From an uncultured virus (IMG/VR IMGVR_UViG_3300037189_025323) (taxonomy: Duplodnaviria; Heunggongvirae; Uroviricota; Caudoviricetes), in IMG/VR virus record IMGVR_UViG_3300037189_025323, positions 52,814-72,813 of that record: 20,000 nucleotides of DNA. One strand, 5' to 3'. Position numbers and translations under genes: made by a program. The stretch's first letter is position 1; each line of letters starts with the position of its first letter. The notes under the pieces are model-generated. The model saw nothing but the letters and a program-made list of their open reading frames with translations, was not told where the DNA came from and did not search any database. Below are positions 1-18,026 of this stretch, piece by piece.

Positions 1-837
1 CCGATCAATTCCTGTTCCAAAGGAAATGTAGAAGATAGCCTTCTTGAAAGGAGCAGCAGTCTTGTTCTTCTTTACATCTGCCTGAACCTTGCTCCCAACA
101 ATAATCTCTCCATCCTTCTCTTTTGAAATAGAAGAGATATTCACCCGAATAGAAGCGTAATGGCGCAAGGCTCTACCACCGGGAGTTGTTGTTTTATCCC
201 CATACATGACACCAATCTTTTCACGCATCTGATTGGTCCAAAAGATAGTAGTACCCCGCTTACCAGCCTCAGCGCAAAGAATTCGCATTGTTTGAGACAT
301 CAAGCGAGCTTGTTGCCCAACATGTTGATCGCCAATGTCACCATCAAGCTCAGCCTGAGGAGTCAAAGCAGCAACCGAATCGACAATGATAAGACCAACC
401 CCAAGCTGAATCAAATGACGAACAACCTTAAGAGCCTGTTCACCACTTTCAGGCTGATTCACAAGAAGCAAATCAGTATCTACACCCAAATTCCTAGCAT
501 ACTCTTCATCAAATGAAAACTCAGTGTCAACCAAAGCAACATCTTCATCCGGAGCATCTTTTTGGAACTCAGCGATAGCATGCAAGCAGGTAGTGGATTT
601 ACCGCCAGATTCAGGCCCAAAAAGTTCAATAAACCTCCCCTTTGGCCAACCTCCTCCCAATGCAGAATCCAATTCGGGACAACCAGAAGAAAAACGAGCA
701 ATAGGAATAGTATCACCAGAACCCAAAAAGGTAATAATATCCTGGGCTTTTTCAGCCTTCTTAATCGTATCACAAATCTTCCGCAACCGTTCAAACCGCT
801 TTTGCCGATCAGGAGTCATCTGAATATTTGAAGCCAT
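1..837 (-). CDS. recA: Recombinase RecA (3' end runs off the window)
   Basis: Not in the ORF track because its stop codon is outside the window. Manual translation from ATG 837 (RBS AGGAG upstream) gives MASNIQMTPDRQKRF...SSGCPELDSALGGGWPKGRFIELFGPESGGKST (Walker A)...LIIVDSVAALTPQAELDGDIGDQHVGQQARLMSQ...WTNQMREKIGVMYGDKTTTPGGRALRHYASIRV...VKKNKTAAPFK, all canonical RecA motifs. Confidence 0.97.
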   Translation of the reverse strand, partial: MASNIQMTPDRQKRFERLRKICDTIKKAEKAQDIITFLGSGDTIPIARFSSGCPELDSALGGGWPKGRFIELFGPESGGKSTTCLHAIAEFQKDAPDEDVALVDTEFSFDEEYARNLGVDTDLLLVNQPESGEQALKVVRHLIQLGVGLIIVDSVAALTPQAELDGDIGDQHVGQQARLMSQTMRILCAEAGKRGTTIFWTNQMREKIGVMYGDKTTTPGGRALRHYASIRVNISSISKEKDGEIIVGSKVQADVKKNKTAAPFKKAIFYISFGTGIDR

Positions 838-850
838 AAACCACTCTCCT

Positions 851-877
851 AAAAAAGGGGATGGACAATCCATCCCC
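851..877 (-). terminator. Rho-independent terminator after the SSB extension, immediately before the recA RBS
   Basis: Minus strand reads GGGGATGGA-TTG-TCCATCCCC-TTTTTT: a perfect 9-bp stem, 3-nt loop and U6 tract. Confidence 0.85.
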
Positions 878-2748: not shown

Positions 2749-3435
2749 TTACTGATTCGACTTAATCTGATTTTCCAAAATCTGAACTTCCTTCCTGAAC
2801 TCTGCAATCATTATACCCTTGTCCCGAAACTTTTTTAGGATTTCCAAAACTTTTGTTCTAATTTCCATATCTTCTGTAGAACGAGCAACAACCCTAGCCC
2901 GATTAATCAAATTAATGCTTTCAGATTGCTGCATAAACTCTTCTTTTTTCGTCTTAATTGCATCCTTATTGTCATAGATAAAGGTGTTCCAAGCTTTTGA
3001 AGAAACAGCAGTCGTAAATTCCGGAGGATTCAAGTATTGACGCTCTTCAAGATAGTCATCGAAAAACCAAGCCAAGTAAAAATCTGCATCAATGTGATTT
3101 TGACTAATTTTCCCGGAAATAAACTGGTCAATCATTTTAGAATCAAGAGGTTTTATGGTGTTAGGATATTCATATCCCAAATTAACCAAAAACCGATTCT
3201 TGAAGCTTGAAATAAACCTCTTTTTCTCATCGTTAACCGGATTCTTAACGGGTCCCTTATCCTTCTCATACAAATGAACGTCAGCCGCTCTTGCTAACAA
3301 TTCAATTTGATGATGAAGCTCAGGAATCTTATTTATCCCACAAAGCTCAGAAAACGAATAAACCATCCCAATGAAATATTCTACGTTGTTCTTAGGAACC
3401 GGAACCCTAAACACATTTTCTTTCTCGCTCATCAA
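2749..3435 (-). CDS. Hypothetical protein, 228 aa
   Basis: Long ORF on the coding strand overlapping the upstream gene; no motif recognised. Confidence 0.75.
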   Translation of the reverse strand: MMSEKENVFRVPVPKNNVEYFIGMVYSFSELCGINKIPELHHQIELLARAADVHLYEKDKGPVKNPVNDEKKRFISSFKNRFLVNLGYEYPNTIKPLDSKMIDQFISGKISQNHIDADFYLAWFFDDYLEERQYLNPPEFTTAVSSKAWNTFIYDNKDAIKTKKEEFMQQSESINLINRARVVARSTEDMEIRTKVLEILKKFRDKGIMIAEFRKEVQILENQIKSNQ

Positions 3436-3865
3436 AATACTCCTTGACTTGACTAACTATATTTTGATCCTGATCAAATAATAACGGGAACAAACAATCA
3501 ACATTTCCCGAACGTCTAAACATGGCGATAGCTTCTTGCTTCATCATAGAATCATTTGATTCTAAAATCCCAACTAGATCTTCAAGATTTCCCCCTCGCT
3601 TCCCTAGATGCCTCATAGCCTCAAATACAATTGATTTATCTTGCTCGTCTCTCAACACATTAAACAACAAACTAACATTCCCCTTTGCCCCTATAATCCT
3701 AATTGCAGCCATCCGTACAAGGGAATCTACATGATTTAAAAAAGGCTCTATCGGGGAAACATCAACTTTTATGCACTTCAAGATATTACGAATATCACTT
3801 TCGTAAACCTTTCCGGATTTAAGCCGGGATGCACAAGTCAAAACAGCCCTTTCAGGAAAAGTCAT
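3407..3865 (-). CDS. HEAT/PBS-lyase-like repeat protein
   Basis: Roughly 30-aa repeats: LNHVDSLVRMAAIRIIG, LRDEQDKSIVFEAMRHLG, LESNDSMMKQEAIAMFR, LFDQDQNIVSQV. Confidence 0.75.
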   Translation of the reverse strand: MTFPERAVLTCASRLKSGKVYESDIRNILKCIKVDVSPIEPFLNHVDSLVRMAAIRIIGAKGNVSLLFNVLRDEQDKSIVFEAMRHLGKRGGNLEDLVGILESNDSMMKQEAIAMFRRSGNVDCLFPLLFDQDQNIVSQVKEYFDERERKCV

Positions 3866-4838
3866 ATCCCTCTCCTAGAACATCTGTAAGGTCCATATGC
3901 TCTTTAGACTCCAATAATTCCTTACGATTGCTAATACCCCTATCCTTTAGGGCTATTGCCTGTCCCTTTGTTATACCGCCGATTTTGATAAGTTTGACAA
4001 GCTCCGAAGAAATTGCTTTTTTAGACCTAAGCAAAAGATCATCAAAAAAACTCTGCATTCCCCAATTAGATACATCAGAATCAATAGCAGAAAGAACCTT
4101 GTAAATTCTTCCAAAGTCACTCTTTAACTCGATTGATTGATTCTTTAACTTGCCAACCGGAGGACCACCAAAAACATGCCACCATAAAAGAACAGTCAAT
4201 ACACAACCATCATCTATCTCCAAGGGAACAGGAAGACGGTTGCGACAATCCTCTATTATCTCACCCAACTTGCTACAATCACCAGAACGACGATTGTTCC
4301 TTACATTACCCAAAGCCCAAGCCAAGGCAAGATCATCATTCTCTAAGCCAAGCTCAAAAATGAAAGAGAAATTATTCTTCCAATCACAAACATCTGAAGA
4401 ATGGAAATAATAAGAAGCAGTAATACTCCCCAGAGGAGTAATCTTTACGAAATTACCATCCCAAATTACACAACCATGCTCAGACAAAAACTCAAAAATC
4501 TTTTCCCACTTAACCTCAAATCCAAGATAAGAATGAAAACTTCTTTCATGCCATAACTCAGCACTAACTACATCCAAAACTTCTTCTGATGCAATCTCAG
4601 GAAGAATATGAAAAGCCAAAAGATTCTTTTTACTCAAGACAGAAGATATGCTCAACTCACTTGCAAGATTTAATCCATTCTCTACATAATCAGCATCGCT
4701 TTCAGCCACAATTAAATCAGCATGGCACTCCCCTAACTCATGCCCTCTTCCCGCTCGTCCGCACATTTGGCGTAAACTTCCAATGGGAATTCTCTCACCA
4801 CGCCGACTTGCGCCAACAATAATTACTCTATCAGCCAT
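3852..4838 (-). CDS. Ski2/Hel308-like SF2 helicase, C-terminal half (motif VI, probable winged-helix/ratchet region, HhH)
   Basis: Begins MADRVIIVG (compare Hel308 ...GVNL-PARRVII), has motif VI QMCGRAGR and a C-terminal HhH-like LIKIGGITKGQAIALKDRGI. Confidence 0.88.
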   Translation of the reverse strand: MADRVIIVGASRRGERIPIGSLRQMCGRAGRGHELGECHADLIVAESDADYVENGLNLASELSISSVLSKKNLLAFHILPEIASEEVLDVVSAELWHERSFHSYLGFEVKWEKIFEFLSEHGCVIWDGNFVKITPLGSITASYYFHSSDVCDWKNNFSFIFELGLENDDLALAWALGNVRNNRRSGDCSKLGEIIEDCRNRLPVPLEIDDGCVLTVLLWWHVFGGPPVGKLKNQSIELKSDFGRIYKVLSAIDSDVSNWGMQSFFDDLLLRSKKAISSELVKLIKIGGITKGQAIALKDRGISNRKELLESKEHMDLTDVLGEGYDFS

Positions 4839-5385
4839 TTTGTGAAATAAACTCCCGAATCTTCTTTAAGTCTTTAATAAAAAGATCTCTAGTCTCCACA
4901 TTGTTCATCACCAAAGGAGAAGGATGCAACAAAGGAAGAACCGGAATCATATATCGGGAAGAAATAATAAACTTCCCATGATGCTTCATCAAGCCATGCA
5001 TCCCTGTTAATGACTCGAAAGCTGATGATCCCAAAGTAACAATCAAAACTGGATTGACTTCCTTTATCTCTCTATCAAGATGAACTCGACAAGCTGAAAA
5101 ATTCTGCTCTGTAAGTAAATACTTTTCCGGAACCAAACACCGAATTACATTTGAAAAATAAAAGAATGAACGGTTTAGCCCAACATGTTCTTTTATTGCT
5201 TCATCAAAATTCTTACCAGAAACCCCAACGAAAGGCTCTCCCTCCCTTACCTCGTCCTTTCCCGGACTCTGACCAATAACCATGATAGAAGCTTGTTCAT
5301 TCATATTAGAAAAAACAACTCCCCTGCCACCTAAAGGGCAAGCTTTACAAGACAAACAATTTTCTTTAATTTCCTGCAAAGACAT
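4831..5385 (-). CDS. Uracil-DNA glycosylase, family 4 (Fe-S type)
   Basis: CLSCKACPL, MVIGQSPGKDEVREGEPFVGVSG, SNVIRC, ACR, LIVTLG and LLHPS motifs. Confidence 0.92.
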   Translation of the reverse strand: MSLQEIKENCLSCKACPLGGRGVVFSNMNEQASIMVIGQSPGKDEVREGEPFVGVSGKNFDEAIKEHVGLNRSFFYFSNVIRCLVPEKYLLTEQNFSACRVHLDREIKEVNPVLIVTLGSSAFESLTGMHGLMKHHGKFIISSRYMIPVLPLLHPSPLVMNNVETRDLFIKDLKKIREFISQNG

Positions 5386-5396
5386 AAAACACCATA

Positions 5397-6314
5397 TTAT
5401 AAATTTACACCCGCACCCAAAGTGCTTGTTGAGACCAAAATATCCAATCCAGATCTTGGATCAGAAAAAGCTTTTTCTATTTTGTTTCTTAAAGCAAATG
5501 ACAAAGAAGCATTATGGAAAGCAGATCTAAAACCGGAAGATTTCAACCTCTTGCATATATCAGCACCAAGAACCTTTGAATGAACAAAAATAATGATCTT
5601 CCCTTCATTATTAGAAGCAAGCTCAACAGCCTTATCTATCTTATCCTGATATCCATCCTCTACCACATGAATTTCAGTAGTAATAGCTGTTGGTCTCCAA
5701 CTACTAGTAAAACATTTCGTTGTTTTACCATTCAGCTTCTTCAACCACTTCGCCAAATCTATAGCATTACCCAGCGTAGCAGAAAGAAGAATAATCCTCG
5801 CTTGAGGATTTATCTTGGTTATTCTCATCAATGATGTCTCTATCGAACCATTTCTTTCCCCCATGATATGAGCCTCATCAACTACAACACAAGTAATTGA
5901 ATTGACCCAATCCCGGTACCGACTTCCCCGAACCTTTGAATCAAAAGACTCTGAGGTTACAATCGACAATCTCCCCTGTATGAATTCCTCAGGAGTAGTT
6001 CCATGGTCACTAGTGCTAATAACCACAGAGTACTTAGACAATTGATCGTTCGCTTTCCAAGCCTTAAACTTTTCCTCACTAAGGCTACGGAAAGGACAGA
6101 CAAAGACAACCCTAGCCGAATCATTTTGACTTAAGTGATAAGCAAAAGCACATTCGGCTAAGACTGTCTTCCCTGTTGCTGTTCCAAATGCTGCAACCAC
6201 GTTCATATCTTTATCAATGAACGGAATTACAGCACTTTGGACCGGATTATATTCCGGAAAAGGAGGCTGATAATAAGGAAAGTCAATCGTATACATATTA
6301 GAGAACAGCGTCAA
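5397..6314 (-). CDS. Ski2/Hel308-like SF2 helicase, N-terminal half (Q motif to motif V)
   Basis: YNPVQ (Q motif), GTATGKT (I), CPFRSL (Ia), DEAH (II), SAT (III), IFVHSK (IV), AFHNASL, and LVSTSTLGAGVNL* (V), ending at TAA. Alternative start ATG 6296. Confidence 0.92.
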   Translation of the reverse strand: MTLFSNMYTIDFPYYQPPFPEYNPVQSAVIPFIDKDMNVVAAFGTATGKTVLAECAFAYHLSQNDSARVVFVCPFRSLSEEKFKAWKANDQLSKYSVVISTSDHGTTPEEFIQGRLSIVTSESFDSKVRGSRYRDWVNSITCVVVDEAHIMGERNGSIETSLMRITKINPQARIILLSATLGNAIDLAKWLKKLNGKTTKCFTSSWRPTAITTEIHVVEDGYQDKIDKAVELASNNEGKIIIFVHSKVLGADICKRLKSSGFRSAFHNASLSFALRNKIEKAFSDPRSGLDILVSTSTLGAGVNL

Positions 6315-7056
6315 AGATTTCTTGAATCTTCTTGGTCTTCTCTTGATACGAAAGCCTTTCTTTCGTTGGCTTCCCTCCCTTTACCTTCACTGTCTTAAAA
6401 TAAGAAAACTCCTTCTTAACCCCGTCCTTATTCATGAAAACAGCATCACCAGATGCCTTTTGAAGGACAACCTGCAAACCCTTATCCTCTCCATAAATGA
6501 AGAGATAGACATCAGAACCAAACCCACCCTTAACATTCGGCTCTACTCCAAGCTTTTCCTTCAACATGTTAATGATAGGAAGCTGATCCAAATCATCCTT
6601 CTGAGGCTCCACAACCAACACAGGAGCAACTTCCGGGACAATCGCAAGAACCTTTGGCTCTTCCTTTTTTACCTCAATCTTAATTTCTTCAACAGGAACA
6701 TCCTCTTCCTGTTTTTTCACAACCTCAACATCAGCCGTCCTAACAGGAGTCGCCAAAATTTCTGGCTTAACCACTTTCTTATGGACAGGAGAAGAGGACG
6801 CAACACACCCAGAAGCAACAACAGGAGCCACAGGAGTAGCAATAACCACAGGAGCAGGAGTAACTGTAGCTACCGGCTTTGCCTTAGCAGGAGAAGCCTG
6901 TAGCGTGTTAATATTGACAGTAGCCTCCAGACACGCTTGGAAAACCAAGCACTGTGAGCATTCCTTGGCTTTCTTATCAAAATGTCCCCAGCAAGTAGCC
7001 GAATGATGAACCTTTGCTCCAGCAACAACACTCTTCTCAGCCTCTTCCGTTCCCAT
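6298..7056 (-). CDS. Hypothetical protein with N-terminal 4-Cys motif and P/A/V/E/K-rich linker
   Basis: CWGHFDKKAKECSQCLVFQAC at 6931-6993, low-complexity middle and a small C-terminal domain; RBS AGGAG upstream. Confidence 0.8.
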   Translation of the reverse strand: MGTEEAEKSVVAGAKVHHSATCWGHFDKKAKECSQCLVFQACLEATVNINTLQASPAKAKPVATVTPAPVVIATPVAPVVASGCVASSSPVHKKVVKPEILATPVRTADVEVVKKQEEDVPVEEIKIEVKKEEPKVLAIVPEVAPVLVVEPQKDDLDQLPIINMLKEKLGVEPNVKGGFGSDVYLFIYGEDKGLQVVLQKASGDAVFMNKDGVKKEFSYFKTVKVKGGKPTKERLSYQEKTKKIQEIFDAVL

Positions 7057-7087
7057 TTTTTTACATCTCCTCTTCTCTTCAGTTAAA

Positions 7088-7855
7088 TCACAACCCGAAT
7101 CTCTCAGAAAAAAAAGGTCTCACAACCTCTTTCATAAAGAGGTGAACCTCATTGTAAGATCTTCCAGCAACACGAGCAGACTTGGCAATACAAACAGCAT
7201 CGGGCATGCAATACCCAGCCTCCTTTGTATTACCAAATAAAGCAGTCAAGAAGCCCTCCCAAGCCGGGAACTCTTCTTTCAAGTCATCAATGGCTGATAC
7301 CATTTCAGCAAAAAGAAAAGAATCACCTTCTTTCTTGCCAATTAAATTAGTATCATCGTCAACCGGCTGAAAAACGTCAATATACCTCTTAGTCTTCTCG
7401 CACTGATGGCGAAGGATGTTTTCACAAACCGTCCAAACCCAAGTAGAGAACTCGTACTTTGGATCATACTTGTGAAGCATCTTGACGATTCGATTAAAAC
7501 AAATACCTCCCAAGTCCTTCACGTCATCTAATTTGCAAGTGATTGCATATTTATTAGCCAACTTCCAAACCAATTTATTTATTGATTCATAGAAAGCATC
7601 GCCAATATAAGCACTACTTTTGTGACACTTGCAGTTTTTGTCCTCACAAACAAACTTGCCAGAAAGAATGGCAACAGCATGCTTCTGAGTGACAGGGACC
7701 CGGACAATGGGGGAAGATTCGACAAGGTGAGAGTGATTAGCCATAGCTAAATGGCAACGACAATTCGGGTCTTTACACCGATTGGTCCCATTAAAATAAC
7801 TAACCAAATCAAGGAGAGAAACAGGGAAACGAGCAATATTGTCTGACATACCCAC
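7088..7855 (-). CDS. Sigma-70-family (region 2) RNA polymerase sigma-like factor with a duplicated Cys/His N-terminal domain
   Basis: KLVWKLANKY...DVKDL...KYDPKYEFSTWVWTVCENILRH matches sigma region 2, with a possible C-terminal HTH. Start is GTG 7855 or ATG 7849. Confidence 0.7.
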   Translation of the reverse strand: MGMSDNIARFPVSLLDLVSYFNGTNRCKDPNCRCHLAMANHSHLVESSPIVRVPVTQKHAVAILSGKFVCEDKNCKCHKSSAYIGDAFYESINKLVWKLANKYAITCKLDDVKDLGGICFNRIVKMLHKYDPKYEFSTWVWTVCENILRHQCEKTKRYIDVFQPVDDDTNLIGKKEGDSFLFAEMVSAIDDLKEEFPAWEGFLTALFGNTKEAGYCMPDAVCIAKSARVAGRSYNEVHLFMKEVVRPFFSERFGL

Positions 7856-11940: not shown

Positions 11941-14900
11941 TTAAAGCAATTTAGCAATATCTTTAGGTCCCAACCGATGTAAAACCATATCGTCTACATC
12001 ATCCCCAAGTGTCTCCGCTGAAACAACAGACTTTCCATATAAAACACCACGAATCCTTTCCTCGATCGTATTTTTACAAACAAAATTAATTACATTAACT
12101 ACATTTTTCTGGCCAAGGCGATGACAATTGTGAACAGCCGCCCTTCCAACAACAAAGGAAGAATCTTCCTCAACAGTTAAATCATAAACCCGAACTTTCT
12201 TACTGGTCTCTATTCTTGTCATAACCTCAGAAACAGGAAGACATACATAACCATCCACTTTCTTATTTAAAAGAGGCGAACTTCTGTAATCTCCATTTGC
12301 CGTTAAAGCGCCAATCCAATGGCCCTTATTATGGCAATTATCAACCTGCCTCAACGTTGAAGGATAACCCATCATTTCGGTTATTTTCGTCATTTGTAAA
12401 GAAAGAATTGGAGAAACAGTAACCCATTCTTTAGTGTTCCTTCTAAAATACCCATCCCCCTGGACATATGCTCCATATATTTTTTCTAAATATTTTATAT
12501 CCCACTTTACAAGCCAATCGTGGGGTATTTGTTTTTTAAAACATTCGCCCCCAAATAAACTTTCAAACCAAAAAGCCAACTCAGAGCTATATACTCTTAA
12601 TTCTATCCCGTTAGTTGCTGGCTTATTTATTGTTCCATTTATTCCAAGTATTTCCTTAGAATACTTTTTTATCCTTTCCAGAATACTCATCTCCTTAACA
12701 TGCCCAGAAAAAGAAACAAACTTGCCTTTGTCATTTGAAATAGAACAAAACCCTTCCGCCAAATACCAACCAACAACAAAAAGGAAGTCGTCATCTATCT
12801 TGATGGCTCTTGGCAATGGATGATATCTACCATTAACAAATTCAGCAGAACCATTTAATCTCTGCATCTTATTAAAAGAAAACTCCTCTGGAAATTCCAA
12901 TTCACCAGGGTCATTTCTTTCTTCAGACAAAATAGGAGATAATAAAAAATCACGAGGACGGACATCAACTGCCTCCATCCAATCTATTTTTTCACCCCTA
13001 AGGATCAAAACTAAATGATCATGGGTTACTTTTAATGGATAGCCATATCTTCTGTATTTGATTTCCGTTGTTAATCCACCAGTTGTATTAGATCTATGAA
13101 GTTTATTCCATACGTCTAATACCTTCCGATATCTACCCCGATGAGTTAAAACCATATCCCCAGTCTTAACATCCTCAATCTTAACCATCCCGCGATCCGT
13201 ATTGACATACTGACCCTCTATAACACACCGATCCTCCCTCTGAGCCATAATAGCAGGAGCCCAATTGTCATCATAATTAATTACATAATCAGCAGAGGTG
13301 AAATTCAAACCAGTAGACATAGCCTCTGTGCCAATCATCGAATCTATTGATTTATCCTCGTTGAATTGCTTTTGCATCCCCGCTCGAAGCTGCTTTGGTG
13401 TATCTCCGTCAATCCGAAGATATTTCAGATTCATCTCTTCCATTACTTTCACCAAAACATCTATCATCTGCTTATACTGACTAAAAACCAGAACCTTATG
13501 CCCATTTTGAATAATTACCTCATCCAAAATCTCCTTAAAAGCCTCAAGCTTAGAATTCACCTTGCAATTCTCACCAATTAATCCAGGATAATCACAAAAC
13601 TGCTTACATCTGATCACAGTAACCATGGCTTCAGTATCTTGGGTTGCTACATGACCCGAAGAAGCTAACGCCTTGTAGATTTTTTCTTCTTCCTTTGATA
13701 GAACCACAATCCTATTCTGATAGATTTTATTAGGCAAGTCCTTTAAAACATCAGCCTTTAATCTGCGAATAAAACAATGAGCTATCCGCTTCTTTACATC
13801 ATCAATATCTTTATACCCAGTCACCTTTCCCCAGAAATCAGTAATGGCATGCTTCTGAAGAAATCTGGTTCTTGATTCCAACAACCCAGGATAAACAAAT
13901 TCCATAACTGAATGTAACTCTTCTAATCTCCCATCCATCGGAGTACCTGTTAAAGCCACTCGGAATTTACTCTTCAATTGCTTTATACACTTACTTCTCT
14001 TGCTAGCATGAGATTTAAGGGCATGGGATTCATCCACAAGGATCATATCCCAATCTCGTTCTTTTACAGAACTTAAAATTTTCTTCCTAAATTGAGCCTT
14101 AGCTTTTAATTCTTTTTTTCTGGCAGTCTTCTCTTCATCATCATCTGGATCTTCTTTATATTCCCTACCTCCAAACAAATCCTCAAGAATAAGCTCAAAA
14201 TTAACAACGTAATAATAAACGTCATCCCGCATCCATTGAGCAATCCTCTCTTCTGGACTCCCATCAATTACCACAAACTTCTCATCTGTAAATTTTTCGA
14301 TTTCAATTGGCCAATTGTACTTTAAAGAAGCAGGAGTGACAATAAGACACTTTTTTGCCCCGTTCTTATTCTTCCTAACCAACGAAATAGCAAGACCTTG
14401 CAGGGTATTGTGTGTTACAATATGATGCTGAATAACATACGAATGATCTTTGGAATCAACAGCAATACATACCGCATCATCATACCGTACAGGCTCAATA
14501 CTTACAATATTCCTGACAAGTTTTGATGATCTCTTCCACTTCGCAATAGAAGATGGACGGGAAAATGGATTAAAACTAGTTCTAACAACCAATTGCCAAC
14601 AATCCTGCTCCTGAACCTGCTTCCCATCCCTTACCCTTAATCTGCCAGGAACAAGAGACTTAGTAGCCATTCCACCCAGACTATGAACAAGCTCGATAAC
14701 GTCATCAGCAAGACGTTCCGATACTGTTGAAAACCTAGTCCTAGCTTTCATTGCAGAACCATCTGTATCCAATAAGCCAGCCAACAACTGCTTCCGTTGT
14801 TCTATGCTTCCTTCAAGATATTCATGAGGAATAAACTTCCTTTCCCCAGTAACATTTAGTCCATATTTAACAATTTGAGTTTTTAGTGGGTTCTCGTATC

Positions 14901-15828
14901 CACTGCCTTTATAAACAATAGAATACCGAGTTGACGTTCCATAATCAGCATTCTTATGCAAGCTATAACCCGGAGGTACAGCCTTCTGTACAAGAAATGG
15001 AGTTTCATCATCCCCAGGAACAAAGGTTACTCCATCTGTCAAGGAACCATCCCCAAGCAACACTCCCATTAGATATGGTGGTATGATATACGTCTTAGTG
15101 TTATAGGCGATTGGTTCGACCAAGGGTATCCGCCACTTGGCCCTTTTATCCTTGTAGTGTAAGTCACCAAATAATTGTCGAGTGTCGAGAACTCTCCACC
15201 CCTGCTTCCTCTTCGCATTGTTGTCCGTCTGGGCTATCCAAAGATGCTCCCACCCACACTCACATGAAAACCCATCACTAAAAGTTACTTTCAGTAATTC
15301 TTTCACACCCTGAGGATAAACTCCATTTACCCGGCTAAGGGTTCCAGCCCTCGAATAAACCATGTCCCCGACCTTCAAAGAACCAATTGGTTGCCAGCCA
15401 TAAGCTGTTAATACGGGGGTGTTTATAGCACAAAATTTTCCCAAACCCATTTCGTCGGCAATTAATACCCCTTCTGCATTTGTTAAAGAATAGACAACAC
15501 CCAGTTTTTGGTAATTATAGAGTCTACAATTCTCCTTAAGACCAGGGACAAGAAGACGAACCGGAACATCCTGTTTGGACATTTCCCGGATTTTATTTAG
15601 CTTGTCTTCTTTTTCTATCTGTTGATGCAGCTTATCTTCAACAGACTGATCAACCGTTAAAGAATCAATCTCGTCAACTAAATATTCCACATTGGAAATA
15701 CTAAATGCAACAACCCAAGCCCTTTCTACTACATCCCATCTCCCACCTATCTCTTTTACCAAATTCCGTTGCTCATAATCACATTCAATAATTAAAAAGC
15801 CATCATTGCGAACCCACATTCTAGACAT
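11941..15828 (-). CDS. SNF2-family helicase/ATPase precursor with two inteins (spliced product about 585 aa)
   Basis: YQ, ADEMGLGK|T, PASLKYNW, DESH, LTGTPM, IRRLKADV, KVLVFSQY, RIDG, GLNF, QREDR|CHRLGQ, TIEE. Confidence 0.95.
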   Translation of the reverse strand: MSRMWVRNDGFLIIECDYEQRNLVKEIGGRWDVVERAWVVAFSISNVEYLVDEIDSLTVDQSVEDKLHQQIEKEDKLNKIREMSKQDVPVRLLVPGLKENCRLYNYQKLGVVYSLTNAEGVLIADEMGLGKFCAINTPVLTAYGWQPIGSLKVGDMVYSRAGTLSRVNGVYPQGVKELLKVTFSDGFSCECGWEHLWIAQTDNNAKRKQGWRVLDTRQLFGDLHYKDKRAKWRIPLVEPIAYNTKTYIIPPYLMGVLLGDGSLTDGVTFVPGDDETPFLVQKAVPPGYSLHKNADYGTSTRYSIVYKGSGYENPLKTQIVKYGLNVTGERKFIPHEYLEGSIEQRKQLLAGLLDTDGSAMKARTRFSTVSERLADDVIELVHSLGGMATKSLVPGRLRVRDGKQVQEQDCWQLVVRTSFNPFSRPSSIAKWKRSSKLVRNIVSIEPVRYDDAVCIAVDSKDHSYVIQHHIVTHNTLQGLAISLVRKNKNGAKKCLIVTPASLKYNWPIEIEKFTDEKFVVIDGSPEERIAQWMRDDVYYYVVNFELILEDLFGGREYKEDPDDDEEKTARKKELKAKAQFRKKILSSVKERDWDMILVDESHALKSHASKRSKCIKQLKSKFRVALTGTPMDGRLEELHSVMEFVYPGLLESRTRFLQKHAITDFWGKVTGYKDIDDVKKRIAHCFIRRLKADVLKDLPNKIYQNRIVVLSKEEEKIYKALASSGHVATQDTEAMVTVIRCKQFCDYPGLIGENCKVNSKLEAFKEILDEVIIQNGHKVLVFSQYKQMIDVLVKVMEEMNLKYLRIDGDTPKQLRAGMQKQFNEDKSIDSMIGTEAMSTGLNFTSADYVINYDDNWAPAIMAQREDRCVIEGQYVNTDRGMVKIEDVKTGDMVLTHRGRYRKVLDVWNKLHRSNTTGGLTTEIKYRRYGYPLKVTHDHLVLILRGEKIDWMEAVDVRPRDFLLSPILSEERNDPGELEFPEEFSFNKMQRLNGSAEFVNGRYHPLPRAIKIDDDFLFVVGWYLAEGFCSISNDKGKFVSFSGHVKEMSILERIKKYSKEILGINGTINKPATNGIELRVYSSELAFWFESLFGGECFKKQIPHDWLVKWDIKYLEKIYGAYVQGDGYFRRNTKEWVTVSPILSLQMTKITEMMGYPSTLRQVDNCHNKGHWIGALTANGDYRSSPLLNKKVDGYVCLPVSEVMTRIETSKKVRVYDLTVEEDSSFVVGRAAVHNCHRLGQKNVVNVINFVCKNTIEERIRGVLYGKSVVSAETLGDDVDDMVLHRLGPKDIAKLL
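12127..13227 (-). mobile_element. Intein 2 (class 1, 367 aa) with LAGLIDADG homing endonuclease, in SNF2 motif VI
   Basis: Starts CVIEGQYV, block B VTHDHLV, LAGLIDADG motifs VGWYLAEG and GAYVQGDG, block F VYDLTVEEDSSF, ends VHN followed by +1 Cys. Confidence 0.95.
14407..15435 (-). mobile_element. Intein 1 (class 3-type, 343 aa) with LAGLIDADG homing endonuclease, in the SNF2 Walker A (GK|T)
   Basis: FCAINTPVLTAYGW at the start, EHLW (block B Trp), LAGLIDADG motifs MGVLLGDG and LAGLLDTDG, AVCIAVD (block F Cys), VTHN followed by +1 Thr. Confidence 0.93.
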
Positions 15829-15879: not shown

Positions 15880-16353
15880 TTACCCTACCGGCTTCTTAAG
15901 ATTTATTACACCCTCGTTAGTAGTATAGGGTCCATCATCCCCCACAAGCACAACCTTTACGTCATACACATATTGAGCAATATCTAAACTCTGAGTATCA
16001 GCCGGATTAACATAAAAGAAAGCCTCGCCCTGATCCGCTGAACCAATCATACCTTCTGCTGGATAATTAGTCCTCTTGGAAAAAACAACAGGACCACTTT
16101 TAATTTTCTTTAAAGTAAAAGTACAAACAGCACCAGTTAAATTAATTGGATTAAGACTTGCATCCTTAACATAAAGCCTAAGTCTACGTTTATTCCCAGC
16201 ATAAAGTTCTATAGCATCATATGGCACAGCAGTTCTCCTCAACGGATAATTATTAACAAGACCAATCAGCTTCGATTCTTTAATTAAAATACCAAGCAAG
16301 TCACAAGGATGAAGTGACTGGGGATTATAATATGCCTCAAACCCGTCTACCAT
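15880..16353 (-). CDS. BppU-like (baseplate upper protein N-terminal-like) Ig-fold phage protein
   Basis: AGNKRRLRLYVKD...PINLTGAVCTFTLKK...G...VNPADTQSL...YVYDVKV pattern typical of BppU-like domains. Confidence 0.6.
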   Translation of the reverse strand: MVDGFEAYYNPQSLHPCDLLGILIKESKLIGLVNNYPLRRTAVPYDAIELYAGNKRRLRLYVKDASLNPINLTGAVCTFTLKKIKSGPVVFSKRTNYPAEGMIGSADQGEAFFYVNPADTQSLDIAQYVYDVKVVLVGDDGPYTTNEGVINLKKPVG

Positions 16354-18026
16354 TGTTGACTCCTAGAATAAAAACTTTCCAGCTTTGGTATAACCATAGT
16401 CGGAACATTCTCTTGATTACCCCAAGAATATTCTTTGAAATTTTTATCTCCCATAACAATAAAAGCAGGAATATTAAACCATTGTGCTAAATGCTGAAGC
16501 CACCCCGCATTCCCAATAAATATTGAACCCTTCATAAAAAAAGAAACCGTCTCGTCAAAACCACCATCCTCACTAACCATTGCAATTGCCCTCTTACCCC
16601 CATTCAACATTTTTACCCGCTCAAGAACAGGAGAATCCATAACGTTTTGAAGTAAAATCGTATCTCTAGGGTTTTCAAAATCCCCGTTGATAATAACAGG
16701 ATCAATATTTAAATCATAAAAACCAGAAGATCTAGAAACCCATTCCAACAAATGCTTTTCTTTTAGCTTGGAAGGAAGTGATATCTTTGCTCCTAATTCA
16801 TTAGAAAGACTTATTTTGGCAAATTTGGACATCAAAGCCCTCTGCCAATCGTCCTTAACAAATACGCTTATATCAGCCAAGCCTTTATTAACACAATTAG
16901 AAAACACCATTGCTGCAATCATTGCCAAACCTTTATCTTCTGGCAATGTGAAATTACAAATACGCTTTGTAACTTCTTTTGCTTCAGGATTAGCTTCTGG
17001 TTGTACTGGCTGTACTACTTGTGCTAATTGCCCGGTTTCTCCAACCAAAGATAAACACTCACCAATTTTTGCGGTTGGATAATCAGAATAAGAATAGCGA
17101 GAAACAAAAAGTCTGGCATCTTTCGGATATGGAGTAGACAAAGCCATCTTATACCAAAGAATCGCCTTTTCATAGTCCTTAAAATAAAAAGCAACATCAC
17201 CTAAAAAACAAAAAGATTCTGCAAAACGAAAATCTTCTGTCAAAGACCTAAGAACCTCATTCCGGCTCTCTTCTAATTTTCCAGAACGAAATAAACACTG
17301 AGCTTTATAATACCTTGCAAAATATCTCTCCTCATTCCAATTGGAAACTTGAAGATATTTATCATAAAAATCTATGGCTTTATCATACTGACCATCTTCC
17401 CTATACCCATTAGCCAAGTAAAACATGGTCCTAGGATCTTGACGCTTCCTGCGGTAATAATCCTTTTCCATAATAGCAATATTACGCTTTGAGGAAGAAA
17501 CAGTCTTGTGCTCCGGAAGATGCTGAATAACAACGTCCTTCCGAATATAAAGAGGGAAGCCATTTGTGTTTAAATATTCATGACAAGCATGCGTCTCATC
17601 GAAAAAGATGTCTGCATTATTTTTGAAAAGACGGCAATGCTCAAAGCGCAAAAATCCATAAGAAATATCAAAAGAAAAAAGACAAGGGTTCTTTTCTGTA
17701 TTAATAATCCCCAAAATCTTATTTATATTCTCTTCATCTATGTAATCATCTGCATCCCACCAAAGCAGCCAATCTTTCGTACACTTCTTGATTGCCTCAT
17801 TTTTTGCTTTACCAAACTCAAAATCAGAAAAATGAGTATCTTTGTTAAAATATTCTGAATCAAAAAGCTTAACTCTTGAGAAGGTTGCTGCAATTTCTTT
17901 AGATTTGTCAGTTGATCCAGTATCAACAACAATAATCTCATCGGCAAATTTAGAAACTGTAGATAAACACCTTGCAATACAACCCTCTTCGTTTTTCATG
18001 ATAATAGATACAGACAAAGAACTCAT
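16347..18026 (-). CDS. Glycosyltransferase family 2 with TPR repeats and a C-terminal GT9-like segment
   Basis: LSVSIIMKNEE, EIIVVDTGSTD, DADD (DxD), RLF, HE; TPR repeats FYLANGYREDGQYDKAIDFY and FLGDVAFYFKDYEKAILWY; C-terminal FIGNAGWLQHLAQWFNIPAFIVMG. Confidence 0.9.
   Translation of the reverse strand: MSSLSVSIIMKNEEGCIARCLSTVSKFADEIIVVDTGSTDKSKEIAATFSRVKLFDSEYFNKDTHFSDFEFGKAKNEAIKKCTKDWLLWWDADDYIDEENINKILGIINTEKNPCLFSFDISYGFLRFEHCRLFKNNADIFFDETHACHEYLNTNGFPLYIRKDVVIQHLPEHKTVSSSKRNIAIMEKDYYRRKRQDPRTMFYLANGYREDGQYDKAIDFYDKYLQVSNWNEERYFARYYKAQCLFRSGKLEESRNEVLRSLTEDFRFAESFCFLGDVAFYFKDYEKAILWYKMALSTPYPKDARLFVSRYSYSDYPTAKIGECLSLVGETGQLAQVVQPVQPEANPEAKEVTKRICNFTLPEDKGLAMIAAMVFSNCVNKGLADISVFVKDDWQRALMSKFAKISLSNELGAKISLPSKLKEKHLLEWVSRSSGFYDLNIDPVIINGDFENPRDTILLQNVMDSPVLERVKMLNGGKRAIAMVSEDGGFDETVSFFMKGSIFIGNAGWLQHLAQWFNIPAFIVMGDKNFKEYSWGNQENVPTMVIPKLESFYSRSQQW

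Follow-up and report, generated by a model that had tools for sequence, protein, structure and literature searches.

Gene organization at the split helicase locus

The window analyzed here is a stretch of 20,000 nucleotides (nt) from the uncultured virus IMGVR_UViG_3300037189_025323 (positions 52,814 to 72,813 of that IMG/VR record). The minus strand carries every gene of the window, and two of these genes, here termed the N-half and the C-half, correspond to the two parts of a single DNA helicase of the Hel308/Hjm type, with a gene for a uracil-DNA glycosylase (UDG) in the gap between them. The N-half (5397..6296, minus strand) encodes 299 amino acids (aa) from an ATG at 6296, as read from its open reading frame (ORF) and sequence, and its product ends ...STSTLGAGVNL (VSTSTLGAGVNL), followed by TAA at 5399-5397. 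An in-frame TTG at 6314, upstream of this ATG, would give 305 aa, but ATG 6296 is the more likely start, and the 299-aa form is also the protein-database entry (P0001). After a spacer of 11 nt (5386..5396, minus strand) comes the UDG gene, the cargo of the gap (4831..5385, minus strand; 184 aa; PF03167, E 4.7e-26), whose stop codon shares 8 nt with the start of the C-half (ATGGCTGA, 4831..4838, minus strand). The C-half (3852..4838, minus strand) encodes 328 aa and begins MADRVIIVGASRRGERIPIGSLRQMCGRAGR (MADRVIIVG...QMCGRAGR).

The ORFs, stops and overlap given in the preliminary description of this DNA, which was made from the sequence alone, proved correct to the base, including the UDG ATG 11 nt past the N-half stop and the UDG stop that overlaps the C-half start. 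Overlaps of this kind are typical of termination-reinitiation coupling, and an overlap of 8-16 nt or direct abutment of the UDG stop and the C-half start was also found at the related loci L009, L010, L011, L013, L014, L017, L018 and L019. The interval between the N-half stop and the next gene ranges in relatives from -4 to about +80 nt, or extra genes are found there. The helicase halves of the window lie in one frame (561 = 187 x 3 nt), which is incidental, since frames differ among relatives.

The same sequence was recovered from other contigs. A viral contig of 180,758 bases (L001/L004) shows 100% identity across 3650 nt at the locus, a Logan contig from X1, a run that may stem from the source sample, covers 3400-6700 with zero differences, and the junction of N-half stop and UDG start is crossed, again with zero differences, by a 256-nt contig of X2, a second sample of the same study. 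Run X3, from a second study, yielded pieces at 4200-4568 and 4705-4852 with about 93-97% likeness, the latter of which is not counted as bridging the UDG/C-half junction because under 31 of its letters fall on the UDG side. Misassembly at the junctions, a concern raised in the preliminary description, is ruled out because the identical sequence occurs in a second viral contig and in contigs of both X1 and X2.

Helicase family, domains and conserved motifs

Pfam assigns the N-half to DEAD (PF00270, 9.8e-24) and to Helicase_C, of which only positions 1-81 of 110 are covered, and finds no match for the C-half. In PHROG 6819 ("Holliday junction branch migration helicase", 645 positions), the N-half aligns at 21-302 and the C-half at 330-485. 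The N-half contains the RecA1 motifs I (GTATGKT), II (DEAH) and III (SAT) and the first two thirds or so of RecA2, as far as motif V (TSTLGAGVNL), and it matches Brr2, Hel308 and Hjm in the PDB (Hel308 2p6r at 5.5e-25). The C-half contributes the last RecA2 strands (the RVIIVG strand, a short hairpin and motif VI, QMCGRAGR), followed by a winged-helix domain, a helical ratchet domain and a C-terminal helix-hairpin-helix domain, these names being assigned from the ranges aligned to PDB chains. A profile of 27 C-halves matched Hjm 2zj2 at 1.2e-28 (chain 340-508 and 610-676) and Hel308 2p6r at 2.4e-28. An HHH_5 match was also seen in the relatives L036 and L099.

Predicted structures are consistent with these assignments. 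The model of the C-half of the window (pLDDT 90.8), which has terminal helices and a long one at 229-257, aligns over its full length with the C-terminal half of Hel308/Hjm (Foldseek: Hel308 9b15 at E 1e-10 over some 346 columns; about 345-359 columns with Hel308/Hjm, TMq 0.50-0.58) and also with Brr2 and the Pol theta helicase domain. The same four kinds of helicase are matched at TM 0.62-0.69 by the model of L022, an unsplit relative (pLDDT 75, weak at the C-terminus). The position of the cut falls in this model between L310 and P311, within a coil (306-313) flanked by the motif V helix (302-305) and the strand RVII (314-317).

The preliminary description had stated that both halves keep their catalytic motifs, and in 27 orthologue sets these are indeed invariant or nearly so. 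In the N chain G42 and K43, D140 and E141, S172 and T290-N298 (the last being motif V) are invariant, and H143 and A173 are each present in at least 90% of the orthologues; in the C chain the motif VI residues Q24, G27, R28 and R31 are invariant. Motifs IV-VI of RecA2 are thus complete but shared out between two chains, and the enzyme is not the single polypeptide that Hel308 and Hjm are: its two parts are separated by a stop codon, then a foreign gene of 184 aa, then a fresh start codon. Judged by profile and fold, the N-half and C-half encode a Hel308/Hjm-type (Ski2-like) superfamily 2 (SF2) helicase whose RecA2 domain must be built of two chains. SF2 helicases use motifs I and II together with motif VI for ATP hydrolysis. 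By this general knowledge of the superfamily, hydrolysis should need both chains, because the C chain provides the last RecA2 strands and the motif VI arginines. The motifs, together with the selection described below, point to ATP-dependent 3'-5' DNA unwinding or branch migration as the probable activity.

No residues are lost at the junction

The six unsplit relatives (five viral contigs and the 595-kb uncultured phage LR756511.1) read ...TSTLAAGVNL/PARRVIIAGV..QMxGRxGR, the slash marking the position of the cut, and the split relatives (n = 15) read ...GVN[LIM] with 0-3 further residues and a stop, then M-A-D-R-V-I-I-V-G. When the window proteins were aligned to the unsplit forms by tblastn, N residue 299 and C residue 2 fell one codon apart in the same frame. 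Therefore Met stands in place of the Pro of "PARR" and no residues have been lost, and the earlier proposal that the halves abut with Met at the Pro position is borne out by both comparisons.

Neither an intron nor an intein was detected at the cut. An Rfam scan of 3400-6700 gave no intron family at E up to 1 and nothing else above chance, and the inserted ORF is preceded by 11 nt and followed by none, which leaves no ribozyme core there. Pfam gave no intein match on either helicase half, and there is no space for split-intein halves, because the N chain ends 0-8 aa past motif V and the C chain opens at the residue that replaces Pro. The preliminary description had likewise held that there are no intein fragments and no room for a ribozyme; the Pfam and Rfam results and the 11-nt spacer agree with it.

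Distribution of the split

A protein search for N-half homologues, restricted to 167-534 aa, found 203, the best 120 of which were analyzed. These 120 share 50-71% identity and come from contigs of up to 318 kb; nearly all are 299-307 aa long (116/120) and stop 0-4 residues past G[VM]Nx (119/120). Viral contigs provided 32 loci, and the 18 at 36-100% identity are all split, with a UDG gene after the N-half in 16 and none in L016 and L021. The other 14, at 33-37% identity, are unsplit or apparently so: a single helicase ORF of 594-608 aa is present in five listed unsplit loci (L022, L026, L029, L030 and L032), and in L022-L025 and L035 the tblastn matches of the two halves adjoin without a change of frame. 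The preliminary description had proposed comparing intact with split homologues, and the outcome is that close viral relatives are split without exception, distant ones are unsplit or apparently so, and other genes fill the site in some.

Metagenome contigs gave a further 80 loci, a few of them from the same phages as the viral loci and 15 of them uninformative because of contig ends. In all 73 loci with the 3' end of the N-half on the contig the ORF ends 0-8 aa past the motif, and the 71 in which the stop codon is visible are all split (TGA 32, TAA 22, TAG 17). Since all three stop codons occur, reassignment of a single stop codon is excluded. Among the 65 informative loci, a UDG gene is present in 45, the N-half and C-half are adjacent (at most 65 nt apart) without UDG in 14, an 82-aa ORF is all that lies between the halves in one (L108), and five have other cargo, with neither UDG nor C-half within at least 700 nt. 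Altogether, protein clusters with the same cut number more than 100 and loci about 90, and the identity of the N-half within the split clade reaches down to about 36%.

A blastn search of the locus against a phage collection of 50,697 records gave no match, and tblastn against the same collection returned only distant unsplit relatives, namely the 595-kb uncultured phage (32%), a Microcystis phage and archaeal lipothrixviruses, and no split phage. A viral scan with the single N-half query turned up nothing beyond the identical contig and a helicase of 877 aa that is unrelated. One protein, P0123 (606 aa, 45% identity to the N-half), is a fused relative with the junction GVNI-LSSNDRE-HVVIVG, the linker of which is unlike the ancestral PAR; it could be an unsplit branch of early origin, or have been fused again when a bare spacer lost its stop.

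Two separate cistrons under purifying selection

In 12 UDG-less loci with a spacer of 12-60 nt between the halves, each spacer holds one or two stop codons, a purine-rich run resembling a Shine-Dalgarno (SD) sequence (AAGGA, GGAG or GAGG) and an ATG, GTG or TTG start. Tandem stops are present in some loci, and the reading frames of the two halves vary between loci. These spacers bear on whether the halves might be joined later, through an intron, a trans-splicing split intein, ribosomal bypassing or stop readthrough/recoding. The shared frame of the halves in the window and in some UDG-less relatives would suit such joining, as would the abundance of inteins in this gene family and in the SNF2 helicase of the window. 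Against this stand the Rfam result for 3400-6700, the lack of space for intein halves, the varying frames, the use of three stop codons and of tandem stops, and the start codon that every C-half possesses, accompanied by an SD-like run in bare spacers; we regard later joining as highly improbable.

For the pair L005 and L006 the ratio of nonsynonymous to synonymous substitution rates (dN/dS) was 0.051 for the N-half, 0.069 for UDG and 0.095 for the C-half, values that are rough, as dS is 1.5-2.2 in this pair, close to or past saturation, and undefined in most other pairs. Pairwise identities of the three proteins are correlated across loci (Mantel r 0.91 for N-C, 0.77 for N-UDG and 0.81 for UDG-C, with 0 of 2000 permutations as high), the correlations being somewhat inflated by a few near-duplicate loci. 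On this sequence evidence, both halves and UDG are under purifying selection and co-diverging. Relaxed selection, which the preliminary description had considered as a sign of a pseudogene, is not seen: the ratios are 0.05-0.10 in all three genes, with no decay. The bare fact of a stop inside a conserved domain, and nothing more, would speak for a decaying pseudogene or an assembly artefact, whereas these low ratios, the motifs invariant over 27 loci, the same cut in about 90 loci and the identical sequence recovered from another viral contig and from two samples make either one a negligible prospect.

A gene in pieces is one whose conserved product is encoded by two neighboring ORFs, interrupted within a conserved stretch, while homologues in other genomes are unsplit, as is the case here. 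The proposal in the preliminary description that this is a genes-in-pieces helicase gains support from the conserved split, the selection, the motifs and the lack of inteins and introns, and the two-chain helicase is very probably functional, with its chains associating.

The uracil-DNA glycosylase

The insert was earlier described as a repair enzyme and not a homing nuclease, and according to the ORF list and Pfam the gap of the window holds UDG alone. A profile of 27 UDG orthologues matched family 4 structures in the PDB best (4zbx 9.4e-41, 1l9g 1.8e-34, 1ui0 4.1e-34) and family 5 (2d3y) at just 2.3e-08. In family 4 UDGs four cysteines bind a [4Fe-4S] cluster. Cysteines C10, C13, C16, C83 and C99 are invariant in 27 of 27 orthologues. 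Motif A is GQ(N/S)PG (G38 Q39 x P41 G42) in all 27, as GQSPG in the window and GQNPG in most, and differs from the family 4 form GE(A/G)PG, seen as vGEAPG or vGEGPG in the aligned 4zbx and 1l9g. In motif B (HPSP) H154, S156 and P157 are invariant and P155 is present in at least 90%; the PFxGxxG block and N79 are invariant or nearly so. Compared with family 4 enzymes (4zbx, 1ui0, 1l9g/1vk2), the UDG of the window is thus alike in the positions of the Fe-S cysteines and in HPSP and unlike in motif A, and by its closest solved relatives it is classed as family-4-type. Two orthologues have additions of their own. P0241 (562 aa, 48% identity) carries an intein with LAGLIDADG_2 directly after motif A (GQNPG/C...N/S, slashes marking the intein boundaries), and the orthologue at L097:5454-6185 (244 aa) has a Cys-rich C-terminal extension with CxxC-type pairs that overlaps the C-half start.

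The UDG most likely acts as the phage's own uracil-excision enzyme, and uracil excision makes sense without a physical link to the helicase because the gene sits in a replication/recombination module. In the passages of PMC13697223 available to us, phage UDGs are described as commonly encoded in trans or fused to a polymerase, the fused forms being active; active UDG domains are fused to phage A-family polymerases, and herpesvirus and poxvirus UDGs bind polymerases. The phage studied here likewise has its own UDG, and the literature searched, those passages included, does not mention a UDG gene located within a split helicase.

An alternative to an independent enzyme is a machine of three products, in which UDG docks on the two-chain helicase and scans the extruded single strand, with gene order and coupling setting the stoichiometry. 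A tight operon, with the UDG stop overlapping or abutting the C-half start in the window and eight listed relatives, would be in keeping with it, as would the long retention of UDG, its co-divergence with the halves (r 0.77-0.81) and the couplings of UDGs with replication proteins on record in the excerpts of PMC13697223. However, at least 20 informative metagenome loci and two viral loci are split and have no UDG in the gap, extra genes are often wedged between UDG and either half, and the tight overlaps equally join unrelated flanking genes, as they do in the window. The longer UDG homologues found (n = 5) comprised one intein-bearing protein and four polymerase fusions and no UDG-helicase fusion, which is weak evidence on so few sequences. 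We consider such a machine improbable.

A related possibility is that the split itself is adaptively maintained, the gap being a domesticated expression slot that links its cargo to the helicase operon and UDG a docked third subunit that couples excision to strand separation at replication forks or recombination intermediates. In six UDG-less loci (L071, L103, L106, L107, L111 and L116) the halves lie in one frame, separated by one or two stops and a spacer of about 4-7 codons, and are nevertheless unfused, a hint that the two-chain state is itself selected. This adaptive slot would be, by analogy, a helicase-side counterpart of the UDG-polymerase couplings of poxviruses, herpesviruses and SP15-like phages. 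Both the proposal and the parallel seem to us rather doubtful. If UDG were a physical partner of the helicase, it would represent a new way to couple base excision with unwinding.

The gap as an insertion slot

Genes other than UDG also occupy the gap in relatives. Genes for DUF559/Vsr-like endonucleases lie directly after the N-half and before UDG in L017, L048, L054, L059 and L088; their proteins are 264-317 aa long with N-terminal zinc-finger-like Cys pairs, and the gap nuclease of L017, the only locus scanned against PHROGs for this gene, is labelled "HNH endonuclease". TnpB genes (OrfB_IS605 and Cas12f1-like TNB) directly follow the N-half at L085:5451-6569 (minus strand) and L100:5469-6650 (plus strand), with no UDG or C-half in the remaining 1.3-1.5 kb or so of either contig. 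In L093 the slot holds a C5 cytosine methylase gene and a thymidylate-synthase-like gene (5334-7140), with no C-half in the 4.5 kb past the N-half, and weak thymidylate-synthase-like matches under the Pfam cut-off were found at L104:5440-6462 and L076:1341-2360. An SLOG/YspA gene is present in the gap of L019. The gap of the window contains no homing endonuclease gene.

Another gene of the slot belongs to a family of about 90 aa (82-107 aa) with an ...L(A/V)E...-type C-terminus, found between UDG and the C-half in at least 10 loci, its kinship being judged by eye from the ends and position. Its members are at L005:6006-6284, L006:5980-6258, L042:2449-2712, L047:5974-6297, L061:5989-6288, L062:4037-4327, L080:5998-6285, L088:7048-7326, L102:1090-1368 and L048:6826-7086, and at L108:5416-5664, where it is the sole gap gene. 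Pfam found nothing on this family, on gap ORFs of 131-145 aa or on the 226-aa ORF of L072, and PHROG found nothing on the ~90-aa gene.

Inteins are common in the helicase gene itself. In the N-half, inteins at the P-loop were confirmed by Pfam at L085:3190-5400 and L093:2902-5331, P0121 has a precomputed intein with LAGLIDADG domains there (boundaries GK/C...N/T), and L044, L099 and L100 have P-loop inteins by split matches of hidden Markov models (HMMs) only. P0122 contains a probable mini-intein in the DExH box, recognized from its boundaries only, with no Pfam match on the insert. The C-half is interrupted after about residue 26, beside motif VI, at L099:5287-7578 and L106:5443-7002 and in L107; the L099 insert matches Intein_splicing (under cut-off) and LAGLIDADG_3, the L106 insert only Intein_splicing (under cut-off), and that of L107 was recognized by a split HMM match only. 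Inteins and homing-type elements are known to target conserved active-site DNA, and such targeting fits a cut sited exactly at motif V.

Origin of the cut and order of events

A quick IQ-TREE phylogeny of 85 N-parts (LG+G4), rooted with six unsplit helicases, recovered the split clade as monophyletic (SH-aLRT 98). Its basal branches are L101, the gap of which is off the contig, L021 with L109 (L021 without UDG), and a clade of eight loci with bare spacers. Every UDG-bearing locus belongs to a single nested clade of 68 rows (support 94), inside which UDG was lost several times (L016/L067/L071, L081, L057, L108, L099 and others); at least eight changes of UDG presence are needed on the tree. Pfam does not identify a UDG in the gene (204-211 aa) that follows the unsplit helicases, so that the adjacency of helicase and UDG is not older than the split there. 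From the topology the simplest history is therefore one old cut, later capture of UDG into the gap and repeated loss, and it is likely that the cut predates UDG. The earlier claim that the helicase was split by the UDG gene accordingly finds no support, as there are basal split lineages with a visible gap and no UDG. The idea that UDG spread as an invasive element fares no better, because UDG distances track those of the helicase halves (r 0.77-0.81), which indicates vertical descent of UDG.

It remains to weigh a UDG-made cut, in which a UDG cassette with its own stop and start was inserted into an intact helicase gene and UDG-less split forms arose by later deletion. UDG is the commonest occupant of the gap and as old as the 68-row clade, within which several losses are certain, and the basal UDG-less lineages stand on long branches, all of which would be compatible with this history. 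On the other side, all three basal lineages lack a visible UDG (the gap of L101 not being visible), endonuclease and TnpB genes use the same slot, and the UDG-less spacers are a clean stop, SD-like run and start with no UDG remnant; we also know of no site-specific means of insertion for a UDG. An origin of the cut by UDG insertion is thus unlikely.

The reading we favor, at a probability of roughly 0.8, is that the locus is an old, intein-less gene in pieces for a two-chain helicase, whose gap is an insertion hotspot with UDG as its long-term tenant. In this reading an old and widespread clade of large uncultured phages encodes a Hel308/Hjm-type helicase as two cistrons that part between motif V (GVNL) and the beta-strand after it, PARRVII having become M-ADRVII. 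The N and C chains would be translated separately from one operon and reassemble non-covalently, as expected because ATP hydrolysis needs motifs I and II of the N chain and motif VI of the C chain. The cut would have arisen once, probably before the arrival of UDG, and it could plausibly have been made by a free-standing homing endonuclease, the Vsr-like genes that some relatives have in the gap being an example. The gap between the cistrons may then have become a tolerated insertion slot, co-expressed with replication and recombination genes; the family-4-type UDG, which is vertically inherited, would be its oldest and most persistent tenant.

Several observations weigh against parts of this reading. 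We infer two-chain assembly from the distribution of motifs and from selection only, and dS is near or past saturation, as stated above. The cut-first order was obtained from a quick tree with long basal branches, in which L021 was flagged and long branches were noted to meet, and a UDG-first history with two to three extra losses is only slightly less parsimonious. The fused P0123 may be placed in or out of the split clade (approximately unbiased test, p 0.43). Vsr-like genes occur in only five split loci, all of which belong to the UDG clade and not to the basal clades that lack UDG, and they are 43-62% identical to one another, roughly in step with their hosts; an origin of the cut by a homing endonuclease, argued by analogy, has in our estimate an even chance. 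Finally, UDG is kept in 45/65 informative metagenome loci and 16/18 viral split loci and is usually start/stop-coupled to the C-half, and this retention and coupling leave room for a role beyond passive tenancy.

Neighboring genes

The C-half is followed by a HEAT-repeat-like gene (3407..3865, minus strand; 152 aa; PF13646 HEAT_2, 2.8e-06), the start of which overlaps the C-half stop by 14 nt. A gene of this kind, with a start/stop overlap with the C-half, is kept in most split loci and was not found after the unsplit helicases, and it may encode a partner protein of the helicase. In L005-L018 an ORF of 149-171 aa with the pattern ...RAV..C...KRY(I/M)NE lies directly 3' of the C-half.

Other genes of the window encode RecA/UvsX-like, SSB-like, primase, DnaB-like and SNF2 helicase proteins, the RecA/UvsX-like recombinase (1-873, minus strand) running off the window end. 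The protein encoded at 7088-7855 (minus strand) has a weak match to sigma-70 region 2, just under the cut-off, and at 16347-18026 (minus strand) a GT2 glycosyltransferase is fused to TPR repeats. The SNF2-type helicase (11941-15828, minus strand; 1295 aa) apparently contains two inteins, with LAGLIDADG_3/Hom_end at about 333-416 and Hint_2/Intein_splicing at 868-1234; its PHROG matches to terminase, primase and ribonucleotide reductase families fit shared intein sequence.

Comparison with known systems

A full-text literature search, supplements excluded, found no paper describing a split Hel308-type phage helicase, and an overview of jumbo phages mentions split Pol III and RNA polymerase and neither Hel308 nor Ski2 (PMC7824862). 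The locus extends genes in pieces from single-phage curiosities to a deep and species-rich clade. Since RecA2 has long been built of two chains here, a RecA-fold ATPase would tolerate a permanent break between motifs V and VI. The relatives form a natural series of unsplit, bare-spacer, endonuclease-bearing, UDG-bearing, multi-cargo and possibly re-fused forms, which serves the study of how splits arise, persist and get exploited. There is also an annotation trap, in that proteins of about 300 aa in metagenome catalogues named "replicative superfamily II helicase" would be half-enzymes.

The archaeal Hel308/Hjm enzymes and the helicase-like domain of Pol theta (PDB 2p6r, 9b15, 2va8, 2zj2/2zj8, 5a9j) have the same five-part architecture and motifs as the phage enzyme, by profile and by fold. 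They are single polypeptides, whereas the phage enzyme is interrupted between motifs V and VI, and its motif V-VI hairpin is shorter than that of Hjm, judged by eye from the profile alignment.

The closest precedents for the split are found among T4-like phages. As described in the available part of PMC2988022, Aeh1 nrdA (nrdA-a/mobE/nrdA-b) and the gene for the large subunit of T4 topoisomerase (mobA at 60.1/39) are split by free-standing endonucleases, gene 43 of Aeromonas phage 25 is divided into 43A and 43B with a seg gene, and gene 43 of phage 44RR contains a bare intercistronic spacer; the halves of Aeh1 nrdA, T4 topoisomerase and phage 25 gene 43 are functional or co-purifying split enzymes. 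The phage helicase resembles these cases in that a conserved replication/repair enzyme is cut in a critical region into two polypeptides, each translated by itself, that would have to come together again, with an endonuclease gene or a short spacer in the gap and with no intein and no intron. The analogy with Aeh1 mobE drawn in the preliminary description can be kept as a model of the origin, given the Vsr-like genes in the gaps of relatives, and does not extend to the present content of the gap in the window, where there is no nuclease. Insofar as the available text of PMC2988022 covers them, the T4-like cases differ further in that each is known from a single phage, whereas here the split is common to a whole deep clade, the enzyme affected is an SF2 helicase of the Hel308 type with its break within RecA2, and the window and most relatives hold UDG and no nuclease in the gap, with many unrelated cargo genes elsewhere in the clade.

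A second group of precedents are the fractured genes of Dassa et al. (2009), whose text, in the portion consulted (PMC2677866), reports an SbcD-like gene without an intein that a Vsr-like putative homing endonuclease has fractured, and includes a gp41-type helicase among the fractured hosts. Here too a phage gene of DNA metabolism is divided into two ORFs, and a Vsr-like ORF lies in the gap of five relatives. Typical fractured genes in that portion (PMC2677866) carry split-intein halves that rejoin the product, whereas none are present here; the gp41-type helicase is a different host from the SF2 Hel308 type, and the gap in the window is without an endonuclease gene. The locus thus differs from the closest known systems in four respects: the host enzyme, the position of the cut in the RecA domain, the depth and breadth of the split clade, and the use of the gap as a multi-cargo slot.

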